The position numbers were made by a program, and so were the translations under genes. This document shows, piece by piece, positions 46,961 through 53,952 of a stretch of 64,000 nt of DNA (position 1 is the stretch's first letter; each line of letters begins with the position of its first letter). The DNA comes from Sulfolobales archaeon (GTDB taxonomy: Archaea; Thermoproteota; Thermoprotei_A; Sulfolobales; AG1): contig JAWBYA010000004.1 of NCBI GenBank assembly GCA_038867615.1, forward strand, positions 96,001-160,000, written 5' to 3'. The notes beneath the pieces are model-generated. The model was not told the origin of the DNA and did not search any database. It was given only the letters and a program-made list of their open reading frames with translations.

Positions 46961-47921
46961 TCACCCCTTAGCTGGTGTTCCAGCCTTGTGGAGTAAGGCG
47001 TTAAGCTCTTCCAGACCCCTGGGTAGATGTCTAGCCCCTAAACCTGTCGCTTTATAAGCCCCCATCATGTTCCCCAGTCTGGCTGCCTCTTCAAGGCTTT
47101 GCTGCCTAATTATGCCATAGATAACGCCAGCGTCGAATGCGTCTCCGCATCCTGTTGTGTCGATAGCTTTGACTCTATATGCTGGTATGTTTATCAGCTT
47201 GTCTGAATAGCTGATCGTAGATCCTTTCTCACCCCTCTTCACAAAGATCGCTCTTGGCTTGAGCATCTCATCCAGTTTCTTGGTAGCTTTGCTTAGATTG
47301 CGCTCACCACTCACGCCTCTAAGCTCTTCCACGTTTAGGAAGACGTATGAGACCTTTCCCCTTAATCCCTCGAGAATCCCTGGCTTTTCTCCACTTATCT
47401 CGTGAAGATCCACCCCTACCTCGACCCCTAGTTTATATGCAAGCTCTGCTGCCCCGATCATTGCTTCCTCCCCCCCATGGGCTGTGGGCTAGATAGCCCG
47501 AGATGAACAGGAACTTCGAGCCCTTCAGGGTCTCGGCTAGAGAGTCTAGGTCGGCGTATCGCTCTTCACAAGCGCCTCTATAGCTGAAGAGGGTTCTGGA
47601 GCCGTCTGGTTCTACGAAGGCTACTGTTACTCCGGAGTGTTTGTCTCTAAAGATCTTAACGTGCCTCGAATCTATGCCCTCGTTCTCTAGATCCTCTAGT
47701 AGGTAGCGGCCTATAGCATCCCCACCTACTGCTGATACTAGGCATGTTTTAACCCCGAGCCTTGAGAGTGCTGTTGAGATGTTACCCCCTACTCCTCCGG
47801 GCGATATGAATGCTCTGCTTATCACGTGGGATAGGCCGTCGATCTTTGCTCTTCTGTCTATGTAGAAGAGTATATCGAGCAGGAGATCCCCGATCACCAC
47901 GACCTCGCAGGCTTGGCTCAA
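46961..47921 (-). pseudogene. PfkB carbohydrate/nucleoside kinase split by a frameshift in a G7 run
   Basis: N-half (PGGVGGN, VGGDAIG) and C-half (DTTGCGDAF) are in different frames; deleting one G at 47470-47476 gives ...SPWGEEAMIGAAE... Confidence 0.85.
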
Positions 47922-48814
47922 GAGCCTCTCAGCCTCTTTACAACGCTCATTAGCCTCCTAACCCTCTCTGGATCCACGGGGTTCTGGGCTATGCCGTTGA
48001 TTTTGAAATAGGTACCAACTATGGCTCCATCTGCGTATCTCAGCAGCTTCTCGGCATTGTCTGGGTTGAGACCGCTTCCTATTAGGACTGGCATGTCACC
48101 TGCTATCTCTTTAGCTAGTTTTACATCATCAACGCTTGGGGGGTCTCCTGTCATTTTTCCTGTCACGATCACTGCGTCGGCTAGGTAGAAATCGCTCCAC
48201 GTGATATGGGTTGCTAGATCTATGCCTGGGAAGACCTTGCTGTGCTTCTTAACCACGTCTGCGAAGAACTTGATATCCTCTGCCATCAGGCTCTTCCTAA
48301 GCCTGAAGAGATTGGCTGCTACGCCATGATCTATCTCACCAGTATCCCAGACGGTTGCTCCTGTATATAGACAGACCCTGATGAACTTAGCTCCAGCAGC
48401 CTTGGCTATGCCTAGAGCTGCTCTAGTACCGTTATGTATCACTGTAATGCCTACCGGTATGCTTATGCTTTTAACAACCTCTCTCGCAGCCACAGCTTGG
48501 GCTGCTATCTCCTCTGGCGGTGTTCTCTCCCAACCACTATAGTATGGTAGATCCCACATATTCTCCACAATAACCCCGTCGACCTCGTTCTCCTCATATA
48601 TCCTTGCTTCCCTCACGGCCCTCTCGATCACGGTATCCATGGGCCAGCCCTCATATGCTGGAGAGCCTGGTAGAGGGAGTAGGTGAACCATGCCTATTAT
48701 AGCCTTATCAACCTTGAAGAGCTCTTTAATGGACCACATTCTCTTAGAATAGAACCTTCTAGCCCAGTCCTCAACCATAAGCTCGAGATCCCGCCGCCTC
48801 ACAAGAAACACCAA
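47918..48814 (-). CDS. btpA: BtpA/SgcQ family TIM-barrel protein
   Basis: IIGMVHLLPLPGSP, ENMWDLPY, ADVVKKH, DAVIVTG, GSG...DGAIVGT. Confidence 0.93.
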   Translation of the reverse strand: MVFLVRRRDLELMVEDWARRFYSKRMWSIKELFKVDKAIIGMVHLLPLPGSPAYEGWPMDTVIERAVREARIYEENEVDGVIVENMWDLPYYSGWERTPPEEIAAQAVAAREVVKSISIPVGITVIHNGTRAALGIAKAAGAKFIRVCLYTGATVWDTGEIDHGVAANLFRLRKSLMAEDIKFFADVVKKHSKVFPGIDLATHITWSDFYLADAVIVTGKMTGDPPSVDDVKLAKEIAGDMPVLIGSGLNPDNAEKLLRYADGAIVGTYFKINGIAQNPVDPERVRRLMSVVKRLRGS

Positions 48815-49788
48815 GGATTAGATAGCATGGAGGAATAAAGACACAGAGACCAATGGTTTCTAAACGCTATTAAGCAATCCCAATCCAGGCTAGCCAGACC
48901 CTGCTCTAGAATCCTTATAAGAACATCGTGAGACATAGATCCAGTAGCACCCCTAGAAGGATAGGAATATGTTTCGATAAACATGAGCAGCCGTGTATAG
49001 ATTAGTAAACCAGGCAATCGACCGGTAAACTCGATAGCCTATAGAACGTAGAGTCTACCCATACACCTAGAGCTTAGAGAAAAAACCCCTCTCCTCTCAC
49101 CCCGCTATCCCAGCGGGATGGCCAGCGTCTTAGAAATATTGCCCAACTACTATTCAAAGATACCCTTCCCTTTTGATATAGAGTATTGGTTATTAACCTT
49201 CCCGGAAGGAGACCCTATGTCTCTTGATACTTGGTCTTTCTACCTCTCTACCCCGCTTTTGATCAATACGACCAATAGCCTGGATAGCCCTTTCCCTTTA
49301 GGATATATACCTACTCCTTCTCCCTATCTATATAGGTGTTCTGTTAATGTTATTAGGATCAACAAAAGGAGCCCAGACCATGTTGCTAGACACGATCCTG
49401 GCTAACACTGGTTGCGTTATAGAATGAGTAAGATAAAGAGTAGACATTTATGGCATATCAAAAACATCAGTATGCTTGATATTGAAAGTCGATTACAAGG
49501 ATTCGATGAAGCCTTAGCGATACTGAAACCTCGAAAATCCAGAGAAACAATCATAGAGAGCAAAAACCCTGGGAAACAGATCCATATTAAAGAACGCGGT
49601 AATATAATAGTGATCAAAAACTACTTAAGCCTGTTACGGGTAGAATAGGCTCATGTCTTCTTAACCAGTCAACCACTTCTGAGGCTAACACGTTTCAATC
49701 GATATAGGTGGCTCGAAATCGCTATAGTGAATATATCGTTTATACTATATTGATCGATGTTTTCTATGTAGTTTTCCGGGTTGATATT

Positions 49789-49995
49789 GATCCTTAGGGA
49801 TCTTGTTGATCGCTGTGGGGATCGTGGATCGAGGGCTGATCTTTATTGATCCGGATCTTGTGGAAGATCCCGTTGGATTTATGGTGTTGTTAACTGGCAC
49901 TTAATAACACCTGGTTAATTTTAACCTCTCCCCGCTAGATCAAAAAGATCACGAGGATCTTGAGAGATCCGAGAGGATCCTGGGGATCTAGGATC
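49789..49995. repeat. Two helically phased GATC arrays flanking an inverted repeat
   Basis: GATC at 49789, 49799, 49808, 49820, 49827, 49838, 49848, 49854, 49866 and at 49938, 49947, 49956, 49966, 49976, 49985, 49992. Confidence 0.85.
49883..49911. other. 11-7-11 inverted repeat, recombinase/dif-like architecture
   Basis: GGTGTTGTTAA-CTGGCAC-TTAATAACACC (10/11 symmetric), followed by GGTTAA-TT-TTAACC at 49913-49926. Confidence 0.5.
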
Positions 49996-50739
49996 CCCGC
50001 CTACGGTGTAATAGAATATGTAGTATAAACCGTGGGTCGTGGGCTGTGGTGATACGCTAAATCAACGATCACGGAATCAAGGGCTTGGAATGGCTACATA
50101 TATTGGTGCTATGATCTGGGATCTATCTAATTGTGGTATTACTCGGGGGTTTGATCGCTGTGTGTGGTTTGATTGATCGATAATCCTGCTTAGGGATCTA
50201 CTGGGTAGTGGCTTGACAGGCTTTTCAATGGGGATATCTATCTATGGGTGTCTTGGTATATTGACTAGTATACGATCATAGGGATCGATCTTGAGTGATA
50301 CCGTCCATCAAAAGATCCATGATCATTGGCTCTCATTGGCTATATGTTCTGGAGCTAAGATCCTGGGATCTTTCTAGGATCGTATTACTATGAGATCATA
50401 TATAATATTATTTAAATAGTATATAAGGATCTGGTGTTCCTCGTCGGTGCATAGATCGGTAAATCCACCAATACACCAAGCAATCAACCACTCATTGGAA
50501 TAATCTTCCCAACCCTAGCGCTAGCTACTTGTCATCTCTACCCACTGCTACCCGGTAGCTTGGTGTATGCTATTCATTACTGCACATCGAAAACCGCCAA
50601 TAACCATGATCTGGATATATTATAGCGACACCGAATCCCTGTGGAAGTAATTCTTAGAATGGCAAATTTAGAGGTAGGGTAGCTAGTACCCAGATTGAGG
50701 TCTAGGCTTTATAGCTATTAGTATCAAACACTGGTTGAC

Positions 50740-50984
50740 GGAACCTAGGATCCTTTCTCCTTATCTTTCTTCTCTTTTCTGCTTGTTTCTTCCTTACAAG
50801 TCCTACTAATATGATTGAATCCTCCCTCACTTCTCCTTAGATATAGGGTTTGTTAGAGAGGACTCAACAATTCTCCTAGCCTCACTACTGGCAAGATCGT
50901 CAGTTCTCCTTGGCAATAACATCCTCACTAACAAGGAGCTTAACAAAAAACTCCTAACTAAATCTCAAAACACCATCAGGATCC
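50740..50984 (-). pseudogene. Degraded coding remnant of unknown family
   Basis: DPDGVLRFS*EFFVKLLVSEDVIAKE / TDDLASSEARRIVESSLTNPISKEK*; coding-like but with stops and a frameshift. Confidence 0.3.
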
Positions 50985-51113
50985 AAGATCTTTGATCATT
51001 AGCGCTAGCCCCAAGAACCTATTCTTGCCCCAATAGCTGCGAATCTCTTTCTAAGTCGATAACCAAAGCCGATGACGATACTATGATCTATATTATTGGT
51101 GCTGCTAGCTCTG

Positions 51114-51413
51114 CTAAACAAGCCTTAGCCATCCCTTCTTAATCATCAATGTCACTATTCTCCAAAACCTTCTCTCAGTAACATGCCTAGGATCGAAGCC
51201 CTTCTCGCTGAGAAGCCTCAGCGCCTCATCATAAAGATAATCCATAAGATCTCTGTTAATAACACCTCCAGTAACCTCGAGCACAGCGTGTTCAACATCC
51301 CTATTACTCGGGTATGGCTTCTTACCGCCACGATGCCCCCTAGATCCTCTGCTATTCTCCACAACCTCTCTCAATAGATCCTCAGGGATTCGGGAGAATA
51401 CATCGCTGGTCAA
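51114..51413 (-). CDS. Small basic hypothetical protein, possibly winged-helix
   Basis: KKPYPSNRDV...GFDPRHVTERRFWRIVTLMIKKGWL; likely TTG start at 51413 after GGTGA. Confidence 0.65.
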   Translation of the reverse strand: MTSDVFSRIPEDLLREVVENSRGSRGHRGGKKPYPSNRDVEHAVLEVTGGVINRDLMDYLYDEALRLLSEKGFDPRHVTERRFWRIVTLMIKKGWLRLV

Positions 51414-51533
51414 CCACTCACCAATAATATATACCAAGGAGCCAAATCTATACCGATCCCGTGTACTTCTTACTCTATGGTTGTTGAAAAACATATTAAG
51501 ATCTATTCATCACCACCATATTGGTGATATAGA

Positions 51534-52148
51534 TTGAAGGACAATGCCTCCATAACCATGGGGTTCAGGAACTCAGCTATATTGCTGGTGATGTGGATAG
51601 CGATCTATCTAATAATAAGTGCATCGATCAACGGCTACCTCTTACCACTACTAAGCAGAGGAGGACTGGAAGCCACACAATACGCACCCTATATAAACAT
51701 AATCCTGGCACTAGCCTTTGGCTACATGATAGTGAGAGCACTAGCCAACACTATATACTGGTCCCTCAGGGCTAGGTACGAACATTCCCAAGCATCTGCT
51801 GTGAGGAGCGTTATGATTATAATAGGTATAGGCGCCCTCCTAGCAGGAATCGCTGGAGGTGTTGCCGGAGGAGCTGCTGGCGTAGCCCTCGGAGGCTTCC
51901 TAGGAATCGTGATCGGCTTCGCATCACAACAAGTCCTAGGCCAGGCGGTGGCAGGGCTCTTCTTACTACTAGCCAGGCCTGTGTCGATAGGAGATAGAGT
52001 AACAATAGCAGGCGAGACAGGGGTTGTCGAGGACATATCACCACTATTCATAAAAATACGGAAAGACGACGGGACATTAATGCTTATACCAAATAACATG
52101 GCCATAGGCGCAAAAATACAGATTATAAAGAAATATGGAGAGACCTAG
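51534..52148 (+). CDS. mscS: Small-conductance mechanosensitive channel family
   Basis: GIVIGFASQQVLGQAVAG, RPVSIGDRV...GVVEDI, IPNN. Confidence 0.92.
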   Translation: MKDNASITMGFRNSAILLVMWIAIYLIISASINGYLLPLLSRGGLEATQYAPYINIILALAFGYMIVRALANTIYWSLRARYEHSQASAVRSVMIIIGIGALLAGIAGGVAGGAAGVALGGFLGIVIGFASQQVLGQAVAGLFLLLARPVSIGDRVTIAGETGVVEDISPLFIKIRKDDGTLMLIPNNMAIGAKIQIIKKYGET

Positions 52149-52159
52149 GATTCGGCTCC

Positions 52160-52336
52160 TCACATGATCTTCGACAATATATCCTCGAGATCTTTCTCAA
52201 GCCTCTCCCTAGGCCTCCACGAAACATGTATAACCCTCACACCCTGCCTAGCAAGCTCCCTCGAGAAATGCTCAAGCCCAATGCTAACCAGCCTTGGCTT
52301 CCCCCTAAGCAGATCCAATGCCTTCTCAACACCCAT
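52160..52336 (-). CDS. Stand-alone FdrA C-terminal-like small protein (58 aa; below the ORF-track cutoff)
   Basis: MGVEKALDLLRGKPRLVSIGLEHFSRELARQGVRVIHVSWRPRERLEKDLEDILSKIM; starts 2 nt after the fdrA stop. Confidence 0.8.
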   Translation of the reverse strand: MGVEKALDLLRGKPRLVSIGLEHFSRELARQGVRVIHVSWRPRERLEKDLEDILSKIM

Positions 52337-52338
52337 GC

Positions 52339-53952
52339 CTAAAACCCCCTGAGAAACTCCCTAGAGAACATGTCTATTAAATCCATATCACTCCTCCTCA
52401 GAGAGATCATAGCAGCAGCGAGAGCCATGGTAGCGTTTGTCGGGAGGATTATAACGCCGAGCTCTCTTAGAATCCTCTCCTGGGATGCTAGATCCTGGGG
52501 ATCCTGATCCGTACCAACAACATGGGCTAGAAAAGCGATCCTCCTACCATCTTCCCTAGCAATCTCCATAGCCCTCTTAATAGCATCAACATGGGCTCCA
52601 GCAGGATCTCTATGGGCTCCATAGCCTAGGACAAAGTCAAGCATGATCACGGCTACTTCAGGATCTCTCGCTTCATCAACGATTCTCTTAAGCCTAATAC
52701 TAGGATCTATCATTGGGTGAGCCCTCCCCTCGGTGAACTCCTCACCCCCAAGATCTATAACCGTGTTCCCATAGCTCTTCCAAGGATCCCGCAGCCTCAG
52801 ATCATCCCTCAAGGGCGAGTTAGACCAAATATCGCCAACAAACCTGCCGAGAACAACCATGGCCTCATAGGCAAAAGTTCCTCCCGTGAAGAGACCCCTG
52901 ATATATCTCTGCCCCTCTCTAAGCCCTGCAATAGCATCCTCTATAGCTTTGATGGTTTTACCATCAATGCTGAGGACCTTTTGAGCCTCACTATATAGGC
53001 TTGGATCAGTGATCCTAGCAGCCTCAAGGACGGCTGCATGAAGAGTTCTCGTCTGAACGATCCTCTTGCTAGCCTCTGGATCTAGAGGCTCTATCTCCCC
53101 GCCAACAAGGCATGTAACATAGCTCTTCCTACCCCTCGACGCTATATAATCAAAGATCATATGCTGGATCTCCCTAGAAGGGGGTTTAGAGACTATAGTC
53201 ACAATGGATGTCCCAGGATCATTCTCGAACACATCGATCGAGAACAAAGTCATAAGACCCCCCACCTCTCTGCTAAGATCCCTACCACCAACACCGATAC
53301 CATGCGAAACACCCAACCCGATCCTGTGGAGAAGAACGCTCACCTCCTGAAGCCCTGTACCAGAAGCCGAGATCACACCTACAGAGCCCCTCCTAACAGC
53401 ATTGGCAAAAGCTATCGCAACACCACCAATTATAGAAGTCCCAGCCTCTGGACCCATTAGGAGGAGGCCCTTCTCATAGGCGTATCTCTTCATAGCAACC
53501 TCATCCTCTATAGGCACGTGGTCACTGAATAGATGCACATGAACCCCTCTCTCCAGGAGCTTCATAACAACCTCTCTAGCATATCTACCCGGGATCGAGA
53601 CCAGGGCTAGGTTTATATCTCTGTTTATATTCAGTGCTAGATCTAGATCCTCATATACCTCTAGACCCCTAGCCCCGTGCTGTGTGAGCAGCTCTTCCAC
53701 AAGCCTTGATATATTGTCTATATCAGCGTCTTCACCAAGCTTGAGAGCAACGATCAGATCGTTTTCTCCAGCGTCTTCACCATCACTTGTTAGAAATCCC
53801 TCTCTAAGCATTAGATCCTTGTTAAGCCTAGTACCCATGGCTATAAAGGCGTCTATAACACCGCTAACCTTTCTCAGCTCCTCCCCAATATGGAGTAAAT
53901 ATACGGAATCCCTGTAAAGACCCTTCTTAACAATATTAATAACTCTAGGCAT
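52339..53952 (-). CDS. fdrA: FdrA/YahF (AllF)-like acyl-CoA synthetase-fold protein
   Basis: YRDSV, ALVSIPG, HLFSD, SASGTGLQEV, GVGGRDLS, SKPP, HPMIDP, DFVLGYGAH; start MPRVINI at 53952. Confidence 0.93.
   Translation of the reverse strand: MPRVINIVKKGLYRDSVYLLHIGEELRKVSGVIDAFIAMGTRLNKDLMLREGFLTSDGEDAGENDLIVALKLGEDADIDNISRLVEELLTQHGARGLEVYEDLDLALNINRDINLALVSIPGRYAREVVMKLLERGVHVHLFSDHVPIEDEVAMKRYAYEKGLLLMGPEAGTSIIGGVAIAFANAVRRGSVGVISASGTGLQEVSVLLHRIGLGVSHGIGVGGRDLSREVGGLMTLFSIDVFENDPGTSIVTIVSKPPSREIQHMIFDYIASRGRKSYVTCLVGGEIEPLDPEASKRIVQTRTLHAAVLEAARITDPSLYSEAQKVLSIDGKTIKAIEDAIAGLREGQRYIRGLFTGGTFAYEAMVVLGRFVGDIWSNSPLRDDLRLRDPWKSYGNTVIDLGGEEFTEGRAHPMIDPSIRLKRIVDEARDPEVAVIMLDFVLGYGAHRDPAGAHVDAIKRAMEIAREDGRRIAFLAHVVGTDQDPQDLASQERILRELGVIILPTNATMALAAAMISLRRSDMDLIDMFSREFLRGF

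Follow-up and report, generated by a model that had tools for sequence, protein, structure and literature searches.

What role does a gene-free stretch of an archaeal chromosome play when it holds the densest accumulation of one tetranucleotide, GATC, in its genome? The question is raised by a locus in a 64,000-nt stretch of DNA from a Sulfolobales archaeon (assembly GCA_038867615.1, contig JAWBYA010000004.1, positions 96,001 to 160,000; this whole stretch is called the window here, and positions are those of the window unless a contig is named). There, two runs of closely spaced GATC words flank a GATC-free core inside a region without open reading frames (ORFs), and an earlier note, made from the letters alone, had proposed a cis-acting chromosome-cycle element (origin, terminus or partition site) bound by a GATC- or methylation-sensing protein. 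We conclude that the XerA recombinase very probably has its target, the chromosomal dif site, in the core at 49881-49926, and, with less assurance, we lean towards reading the arrays as landing pads for a putative GATC reader that would shape or gate recombination at this dif. The cis-acting chromosome-cycle element and its GATC-free core thereby stand as proposed, with the type being dif rather than origin or partition site, although it had escaped the earlier note that a site known from Sulfolobus lies in the core; by analogy, the archaeal dif can be viewed as the counterpart of the bacterial terminus-region element.

Counting from the list of GATC start positions, we reproduced the figures of the earlier note, 34 GATC within 49752-50457 (706 nt) and 16 within 49789-49995 (207 nt), and the ORF list likewise bore out its statement that no ORF of at least 60 amino acids lies across 49650-51110. 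The window as a whole holds 635 GATC (9.9/kb) versus 351 +/- 17 (5.5/kb) in dinucleotide-preserving shuffles. Scanning the entire assembly (28 contigs, 2,221,398 nt, 94% complete) revealed a mean of 2.2 GATC and a 99.9th percentile of 9 for 207-nt windows, with the locus being the maximum at 16, and the locus was again the maximum, at 34, for 706-nt windows. Defining a run as consecutive sites spaced by at most 12 nt, the left run (9 GATC) is the longest of the genome and the right run (7 GATC) the joint second-longest, with successive spacings of 10, 9, 12, 7, 11, 10, 6 and 12 nt and of 9, 9, 10, 10, 9 and 7 nt, respectively, on either side of 68 GATC-free nt (49870-49937). The spacing is mostly regular, as had been noted, such that 11 of the 14 run spacings measure 9-12 nt, a share that stands at 31% among all GATC spacings of <=20 nt in the genome (binomial P 3e-4). 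The locus is therefore the genome's top outlier in GATC density, yet it is not unique, a few other loci carrying the same kind of array. The locus is not an assembly artefact, a worry that the earlier note had raised: Logan contigs from three DNA runs in three studies span the stretch, one as a single 31-kb piece (two of the three runs may themselves be the source of this DNA), and the array-core-array architecture recurs in all five other genomes of the genus. Across the assembly, GATC is also the most over-represented 4-mer (observed/expected 1.50 under a second-order model). At the opposite end of the same tally, no tetranucleotide is avoided as strongly as GGCC (observed/expected 0.58), a hint at a GGCC restriction system like that known in Sulfolobus.

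We then turn to the core, which lies outside genes and is present in one copy in the assembly. Querying 30 relatives with the 1.46-kb ORF-free stretch, we found the full region matched only in the two closest genomes. Elsewhere the match was limited to the central ~46 nt, which the remaining three genomes of the genus carry at 89-93% and a single genome from a second genus at 74%. Every one of these cores has GATC runs on either side, even though alignment of the flanks is lost. An exact-pattern scan with a 16-mer, taking one genome per species, returned 59 places, mostly chance matches in bacteria; five named records (labelled Desulfurococcales, Desulfurococcaceae or Sulfolobales) hold 11-16 GATC within 170 nt of the core, and in two others (Zestosphaera, Pyrodictiaceae) the core extends past the searched 16-mer with no surrounding GATC. 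A covariance model built from eight cores (R1) was run on 151 genomes of the order and found matches in 64. In 56 of these the match is unique; in the other eight, the extra matches come from reading the palindrome on its second strand, from duplication at contig ends or, in G005, G016 and G071, from a weaker second locus. There is thus one core per chromosome, and the 46-nt model can serve to locate one dif in nearly all of these 64 genomes. A second dif-like site in G005 (contig C126) was rejected as a candidate, as it has no arrays and lies on a low-GATC contig that probably belongs to another organism in that bin. As a separate observation, the assemblies of two genomes break exactly at the core (G001, contigs C135/C173; G126, contigs C55/C65), with the core repeated on both contig ends; a mixture of strains, or a rearrangement occurring there, could lie behind these breaks.

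Aligning the cores of 43 genomes revealed a pair of inverted 11-nt arms separated by 7 nt of variable spacer, and a third arm in direct orientation, with 89% of the dyad positions complementary; in the window, the arms are complementary at 10 of 11 positions and their inner ends read TAA-N7-TTA. Arms that are kept around a spacer that varies between lineages form the pattern expected of a tyrosine-recombinase site. Inner ends of the form TAA-N6-8-TTA are named as the best conserved feature of archaeal dif sites in work on Thermococcus kodakarensis (Nat Commun 2025, PMC11840125), and since the TAA-N7-TTA of the core fits this form, the core has the arm layout of archaeal Xer/dif sites.

The experimentally proven dif of the order is that of Sulfolobus solfataricus, identified by Xer chromatin immunoprecipitation, gel shift and in vitro recombination (Duggin et al. 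2011, PMC3020120), and aligning it to the family cores gave the same spacing. The published 50-nt oligo of this dif occurs once among our genomes, in G170 (family f13), placing the Sulfolobaceae within the same order in the taxonomy used here. Allowing up to 3 mismatches, a 21-mer from L116, a member from outside the Sulfolobaceae, matched 22 of the 47 Sulfolobaceae genomes, and its reversed control matched none of the 47. The match is single in 20 genomes, on two separate contigs in G156 and at one site on both strands in G162; the match in G170 falls inside the published dif, at 3 mismatches. These matches argue for a sequence relationship between the core and a dif proven by experiment. The two sites are alike in further respects: each is a single chromosomal site within a long intergenic region, TAA closes the first arm, a spacer of equal length opens with CTGG, TTAAC starts the inverted arm, and a third arm gives rise to a second dyad overlapping the first (DYAD2 on DYAD3) (PMC3020120). 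They differ at about half of the arm positions and in their flanks, GATC arrays not being reported for the S. solfataricus dif (GATC around the Sulfolobaceae loci is uncounted).

Homology and copy number are joined by co-occurrence with XerA in pointing to a dif. The assembly encodes a XerA candidate at C3:145236-146153, whose best solved relatives are XerA and XerD; a XerA gene on a contig other than the core's is usual. Sorting the genomes of family f1 by genus, a XerA ortholog is present in 5/5 of g1 and 2/2 of g3, and the core in 5/5 of g1 and 1/2 of g3 (the g3 miss being a 63%-complete genome). In genus g2 (G006, G008, G010-G013; 71-98% complete) neither XerA ortholog nor core was found, 0/6 for each, such that core and XerA co-occur within the family; dimers in g2 may be resolved by a different system, or by one that has diverged strongly. 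That this XerA would act at the core we infer from homology.

Seeing a core with relatives in many genomes of the order, we evaluated how far its GATC flanks extend along with it. Among 45 dif loci oriented by the model (6 from family f1 and 39 from other families), the 6 family-f1 loci hold 11-18 GATC within +/-150 nt of dif, and at the 39 others no palindromic 4-mer exceeds 9 in the same interval; GATC arrays beside dif are thus confined to family f1 in this set. Within the genus, the positions of the arrays relative to dif are retained despite divergence of the intervening sequence, with GATC offsets from the core at about -23, -37, -43, -53, -82 and -91 on the left and +58, +67, +77 and +86 on the right, and GATC-N3-GATC pairs are kept ~220 and 430-470 nt right of the core. 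In a five-genome alignment, 12/27 GATC words are conserved in all five genomes versus 7/380 other 4-mers, a comparison to be read knowing that the aligner may anchor on GATC and that the genomes form two clades. The GATC words and their positions are under selection. We interpret the core as a new member of a known dif family and the GATC-array flanks as the new part of the locus.

The same array type recurs elsewhere in the genome, which holds eight runs of at least 5 closely spaced GATC, 5/8 of them at recombination sites (the two at dif and three others; Table 1). The sequence on contig C11 is interpreted as the leader of a clustered regularly interspaced short palindromic repeat (CRISPR) array because it is conserved beside many arrays, and a leader with 10-17 GATC is kept beside several CRISPR arrays in G000, G003, G005 and G001; the direction of CRISPR transcription is one that we take from the repeat's end. 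The right array at dif has purine-rich spacers with recurring GATC-N1-3-GAG units, similar to units at C10:41084-41138. The main text of a paper on 542 archaeal CRISPR leaders does not mention GATC, and no literature linking GATC arrays to dif or to crenarchaeal leaders was found in a search whose scope did not extend to supplements and figures, including published dif alignments. Directly beside the GATC run at the integrase/transfer RNA (tRNA) fragment junction of C10, at C10:41020-41083, stand five direct repeats with a 9-10-nt unit (GATATGAAA-like) that may serve an integrated element as iterons or arm-type sites. The second-densest GATC region of the assembly, C17:7189-8060 (28 in 706 nt), is on an 11-kb contig whose large ORFs are without a Pfam match, possibly a virus or plasmid.

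We offer, as a tentative possibility, that a GATC-array-reading system marks dif, the integrase attachment (att) junctions at tRNA genes and the CRISPR leaders in this family of hyperthermophilic archaea. One host architectural factor serving several site-specific DNA-joining reactions is known in bacteria, where IHF acts at phage att arms and at the E. coli CRISPR leader. Like the IHF sites, one array type is found here at dif, at integrase/tRNA junctions and at CRISPR leaders; IHF sites, in contrast, are single, asymmetric and sharply bent, and those here are arrays of a 4-bp palindrome. If such a system were real, its reader would provide control of bending, synapsis or timing as IHF, PepA/ArgR or FtsK do in bacteria, and would be a candidate for the missing host factor giving XerA its direction and Cas1-Cas2 its specificity in crenarchaea.

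At dif itself, the mechanism we favour would begin with one XerA monomer bound to each of the inverted arms (49883-49893 and 49901-49911). Strand exchange over the 7-nt spacer would then return a chromosome dimer to monomers, with the third arm at 49913-49926 forming an overlapping second dyad as it does at the S. solfataricus dif. The arrays on both sides, together with the looser GATC zone to the right, would have been acquired in family f1 as landing pads on which a putative GATC reader, probably an architectural or methylation-reading protein, binds the spaced words co-operatively, leaving the ~80 bp to either side of dif stiffened or wrapped, and the coated flanks may then shape or gate the synapse of the XerA complex. 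Both the binding of a protein to the arrays and its effect are what we infer. A precedent in bacteria is given by the plasmid Xer sites cer and psi with ArgR/PepA, where the core adjoins a protein-binding stretch of ~100-200 bp through which the synapse takes its shape and resolution prevails over multimer formation; those accessory sequences are bacterial, lie on one side of the core and have no short repeated palindrome, whereas the arrays of the window lie on both sides. The proposed role would likewise resemble that of IHF at att sites and CRISPR leaders and, among archaea, that of the flanks which TrmBL2 coats around the T. kodakarensis dif. Archaeal XerA recombines dif unaided in the test tube and we know of no FtsK in these organisms, which makes the control of resolution versus dimer formation the question at stake. 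How resolution is favoured and how sister dif sites meet was asked by the authors of both the Sulfolobus and the Thermococcus work (PMC3020120, PMC11840125). With a countable and conserved flank signal at dif that is common to integrase sites and CRISPR leaders, this lineage makes the question of XerA control testable.

Several observations weigh against this picture, some touching the core and others the arrays. The spacer is 7 nt, not 6 as in the textbook dif layout of 11-6-11 (or 5 nt if the arms are read as 12 nt, as in many family members). R1 gave nothing at the S. solfataricus dif, and a second covariance model, R2, placed on it in register, scored 7.4 bits (E 0.85 in 3 kb, not significant) and also missed G170 in a search across 41 Sulfolobaceae genomes, such that the link to the S. 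solfataricus dif rests on the 21-mer match and the shared layout. R1 further had no match in 87/151 genomes of the order, and the 21-mer none in 25/47 Sulfolobaceae, which means that the dif family as modelled does not yet span the order. Turning to the arrays, the best-fitting period of the runs is 9.25-9.5 nt and not the helical repeat of 10.5, and the sites would therefore spiral slowly around the helix rather than lie on one face of it, as the earlier note had it. Two of the eight runs are inside ORFs and one is on an ORFan contig (C17), and the integrase and leader arrays sit where promoters or operators would lie and could be regulatory sites there. AGATCT, the word used for cross-genome counts, reaches high density in 13/13 genomes of the family, g2 included; as XerA and core were not found in g2, the GATC trait is not tied to dif, and the GATC system would be older or wider than its use at dif.

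Among other ways of reading the locus, one leaves the core as dif and gives the arrays no part in recombination: they would be sites of a filament-forming nucleoid or silencing protein that acts as a boundary or insulator at dif and as a repressor at the integrase and CRISPR loci, an alternative that we rate as rather unlikely. It has a parallel in T. kodakarensis, whose dif lies in a 1.9-kb intergenic region with flanks bound by TrmBL2 that act independently of dif, forming a boundary without it, and where TrmBL2 binds tens of other loci (PMC11840125). The two loci are alike in their unusually long gene-free region, and both flanks in T. kodakarensis are bound by a non-XerA protein and have a role in their own right, as is proposed here (PMC11840125). 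The promoter-proximal place of the integrase and leader arrays fits as well, as do the rank of GATC as the top over-represented 4-mer, expected if an abundant protein prefers GATC, and the presence of TrmB-family matches in the genome (12 over the cut-off, 23 at E <= 0.001). However, the T. kodakarensis flanks and TrmBL2 sites are A/T-rich and stall Smc-ScpAB, whereas the flanks in the window are spaced GATC words; the 94%-complete assembly yielded no match to an SMC hinge domain and Crenarchaeota are described as having no Smc-ScpAB (PMC11840125), leaving the known boundary mechanism with no obvious motor here. The arrays, moreover, leave a gap of 11-13 nt to the outer edge of dif on either side, a closeness that points to contact with the recombination complex. 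Another alternative makes the arrays methylation sensors, such that a GATC adenine methyltransferase and a hemimethylation reader would hold sister dif sites together or block XerA until replication ends, in the manner of SeqA, and this we consider quite unlikely. GATC clusters at the E. coli oriC are read by Dam and SeqA, and the locus resembles oriC in being a cis-acting chromosomal element where GATC words are locally frequent and lie close together. Selection on a palindromic 4-mer as such would suit a sensor, as would the early replication of the S. solfataricus dif, whose authors asked what keeps sister dif sites together (PMC3020120), and the partial N6-methyladenine reported at GATC-containing sites in Sulfolobus acidocaldarius (PMC5809426), a report that also qualifies the statement of the earlier note that no such GATC system is described in crenarchaea. 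Unlike oriC, the locus is very probably not an origin, its period is 9.25-9.5 nt, and the check for a Dam-type enzyme found no D12-class Dam (PF02086) match in the assembly, in searches that matched control genomes and did not include SeqA and MutH. The assembly has three orphan N6/N4 methyltransferases with no specificity assigned, of which one pair of paralogs is confined to the closest clade, and the L161 methyltransferase was rejected as a family-wide GATC enzyme, being found only in G000, G002 and G003. The third, an orphan beta-class adenine methyltransferase at C1:159082-159939, outside the window and flanked by housekeeping genes, is restricted to the family (8/13 family genomes in addition to the window's own versus 0/137 from other families of the order at E <= 1e-30) and counts for a sensor, as does its nearest named model, the cell-cycle methyltransferase CcrM (below that model's cut-off); against this, CcrM reads GANTC, which is not enriched at the locus (1 in 706 nt), and the enzyme was not found in G004 and G005, which bear full arrays, or in either g3 genome, arrays being present in these too. 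A GATC- or methylation-sensing protein, as first proposed, is therefore plausible given the selection on GATC and this family-restricted enzyme, with the D12-class result counting the other way.

The remaining alternatives dispute the core. A replication origin or partition site, with the arrays as initiator or centromere-protein sites and 50396-50427 as the unwinding element, would be in keeping with some plasmid centromeres and origins, in which two repeat arrays flank a core; the locus does have an A/T-rich tract and a long conserved non-coding block, and a GATC run adjoins the five short direct repeats in the integrated element on C10. Even so, we find this very improbable. The two Cdc6_C (orc1/cdc6) matches of the assembly are both on contig C2, outside the window (whiP was not searched for), and motifs resembling the origin recognition box (ORB) lie upstream of one C2 orc1 with none seen at the locus, judged by eye and not with a formal ORB model. 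Cumulative skew, which is weak in multi-origin archaea and hence soft evidence, has no turn at C4:145.8 kb, the extremum of the contig being at ~65-80 kb, the core belongs to the dif family, and at the 39 other-family loci of this site the arrays are missing. With neither an adjacent orc1/cdc6 nor a skew switch at the site, the origin and partition options of the earlier note are left with scant support. Scarcely credible, lastly, is a small structured RNA (hairpin and U-run) at the core with promoter and terminator in the flanks: the 11-bp stem has changes on both sides at three pairs and a T-run follows the hairpin, yet the dyad is equally explained by a dimeric DNA-binding protein, the third arm repeats arm 1 in direct orientation as fits a protein site, Rfam gave no match at E <= 1 across 47000-53000, the tRNA scan found nothing at the locus, and the core has homology to a site proven to recombine as DNA.

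Table 1. Coordinates of the dif locus in the window and of GATC runs of the same kind on other contigs
Feature	Position	Strand	Remarks
Outer inverted repeat, left arm	49738..49750	.	A/T-rich; pairs with 50018-50030; brackets the array-dif-array unit
Left GATC array	49789..49869	.	9 GATC; ends 13 nt before dif arm 1; GATC run at dif left, one of the eight
dif element, 46-nt model	49881..49926	+	Single copy; layout compared with S. solfataricus DYAD3/DYAD2 oligos
dif arm 1	49883-49893		
dif spacer	49894-49900		7 nt
dif arm 2	49901-49911		Inverted
dif third arm / second dyad	49913-49926		14 nt
Right GATC array	49938..49995	.	7 GATC; starts 11 nt past arm 3; GATC run at dif right, one of the eight
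Outer inverted repeat, right arm	50018..50030	.	Partner of 49738-49750
Second GATC zone	50067..50457	.	17 GATC, without a single period
First GTATTACT box	50136..50143	+	
Second GTATTACT box	50382..50389	+	Within the GATCGTATTACT block, invariant in five genomes
A/T-rich tract	50396..50427	.	~80% A+T over 50 nt; relatives A/T-rich too
Conserved non-coding block	50460..50790	.	67-82% three-way identity, no ORF; alignable in the closest clade (three genomes) only
GATC run	C10:41084-41138		Flanked by an integrase gene and, at the contig end, a tRNA fragment
GATC run	C8:3995-4029		Between an archaeal-type integrase gene and tRNA-Gly(TCC); 93% identity over 118 nt to the C10 junction
GATC run	C11:16740-16785		Conserved sequence beside a CRISPR array, near csa3 and type I-A cas genes

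Beyond the arrays, the locus possesses further ordered features. The outer inverted repeat has 13-nt arms that are 92% complementary and 267 nt apart, and it is kept in the two closest relatives. Within the second GATC zone, the GATC-N3-GATC pairs at 50113-50123 and 50314-50324 are retained in 5/5 aligned genomes. The word GTATTACT recurs in both orientations right of dif, with an inverted copy found 58-125 nt right of dif in four relatives. At L084 (G026:C1), a dif locus of another family, GTATTACT occurs three times at exact 104-nt intervals, 187-395 nt left of dif, a spacing that suggests a tandem repeat there. The A/T-rich tract could be a promoter or an easily melted stretch. Inside the conserved non-coding block, an exact 11-nt inverted repeat (50471-50481 / 50558-50568) accompanies a predicted long-range stem of ~20 bp, and in a three-genome consensus RNA fold of 50440-50800 the sequences are too alike to judge pairing.

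Right of this block, 50790-51110 is a gene remnant: in relative G002, insertions restore a 260-amino-acid coiled-coil ORF on the minus strand (L026:2849-3631), which in the window has been deleted down to fragments. No gene neighbourhood around the core is conserved past the closest clade, the neighbours differing in G004, G005, G007 and the named records, and the two small ORFs left of the ORF-free region are not conserved in the closest relatives. A strain variant without 48876-49731 was seen in one metagenome. Nearby genes include those for BtpA, PfkB and an MscS-like channel, among others, and the PfkB-family sugar kinase at 46961-47921 is split into two overlapping ORFs (166 and 162 amino acids) that correspond to the C- and N-terminal halves of the family model, a split that represents a frameshift or a sequencing error.

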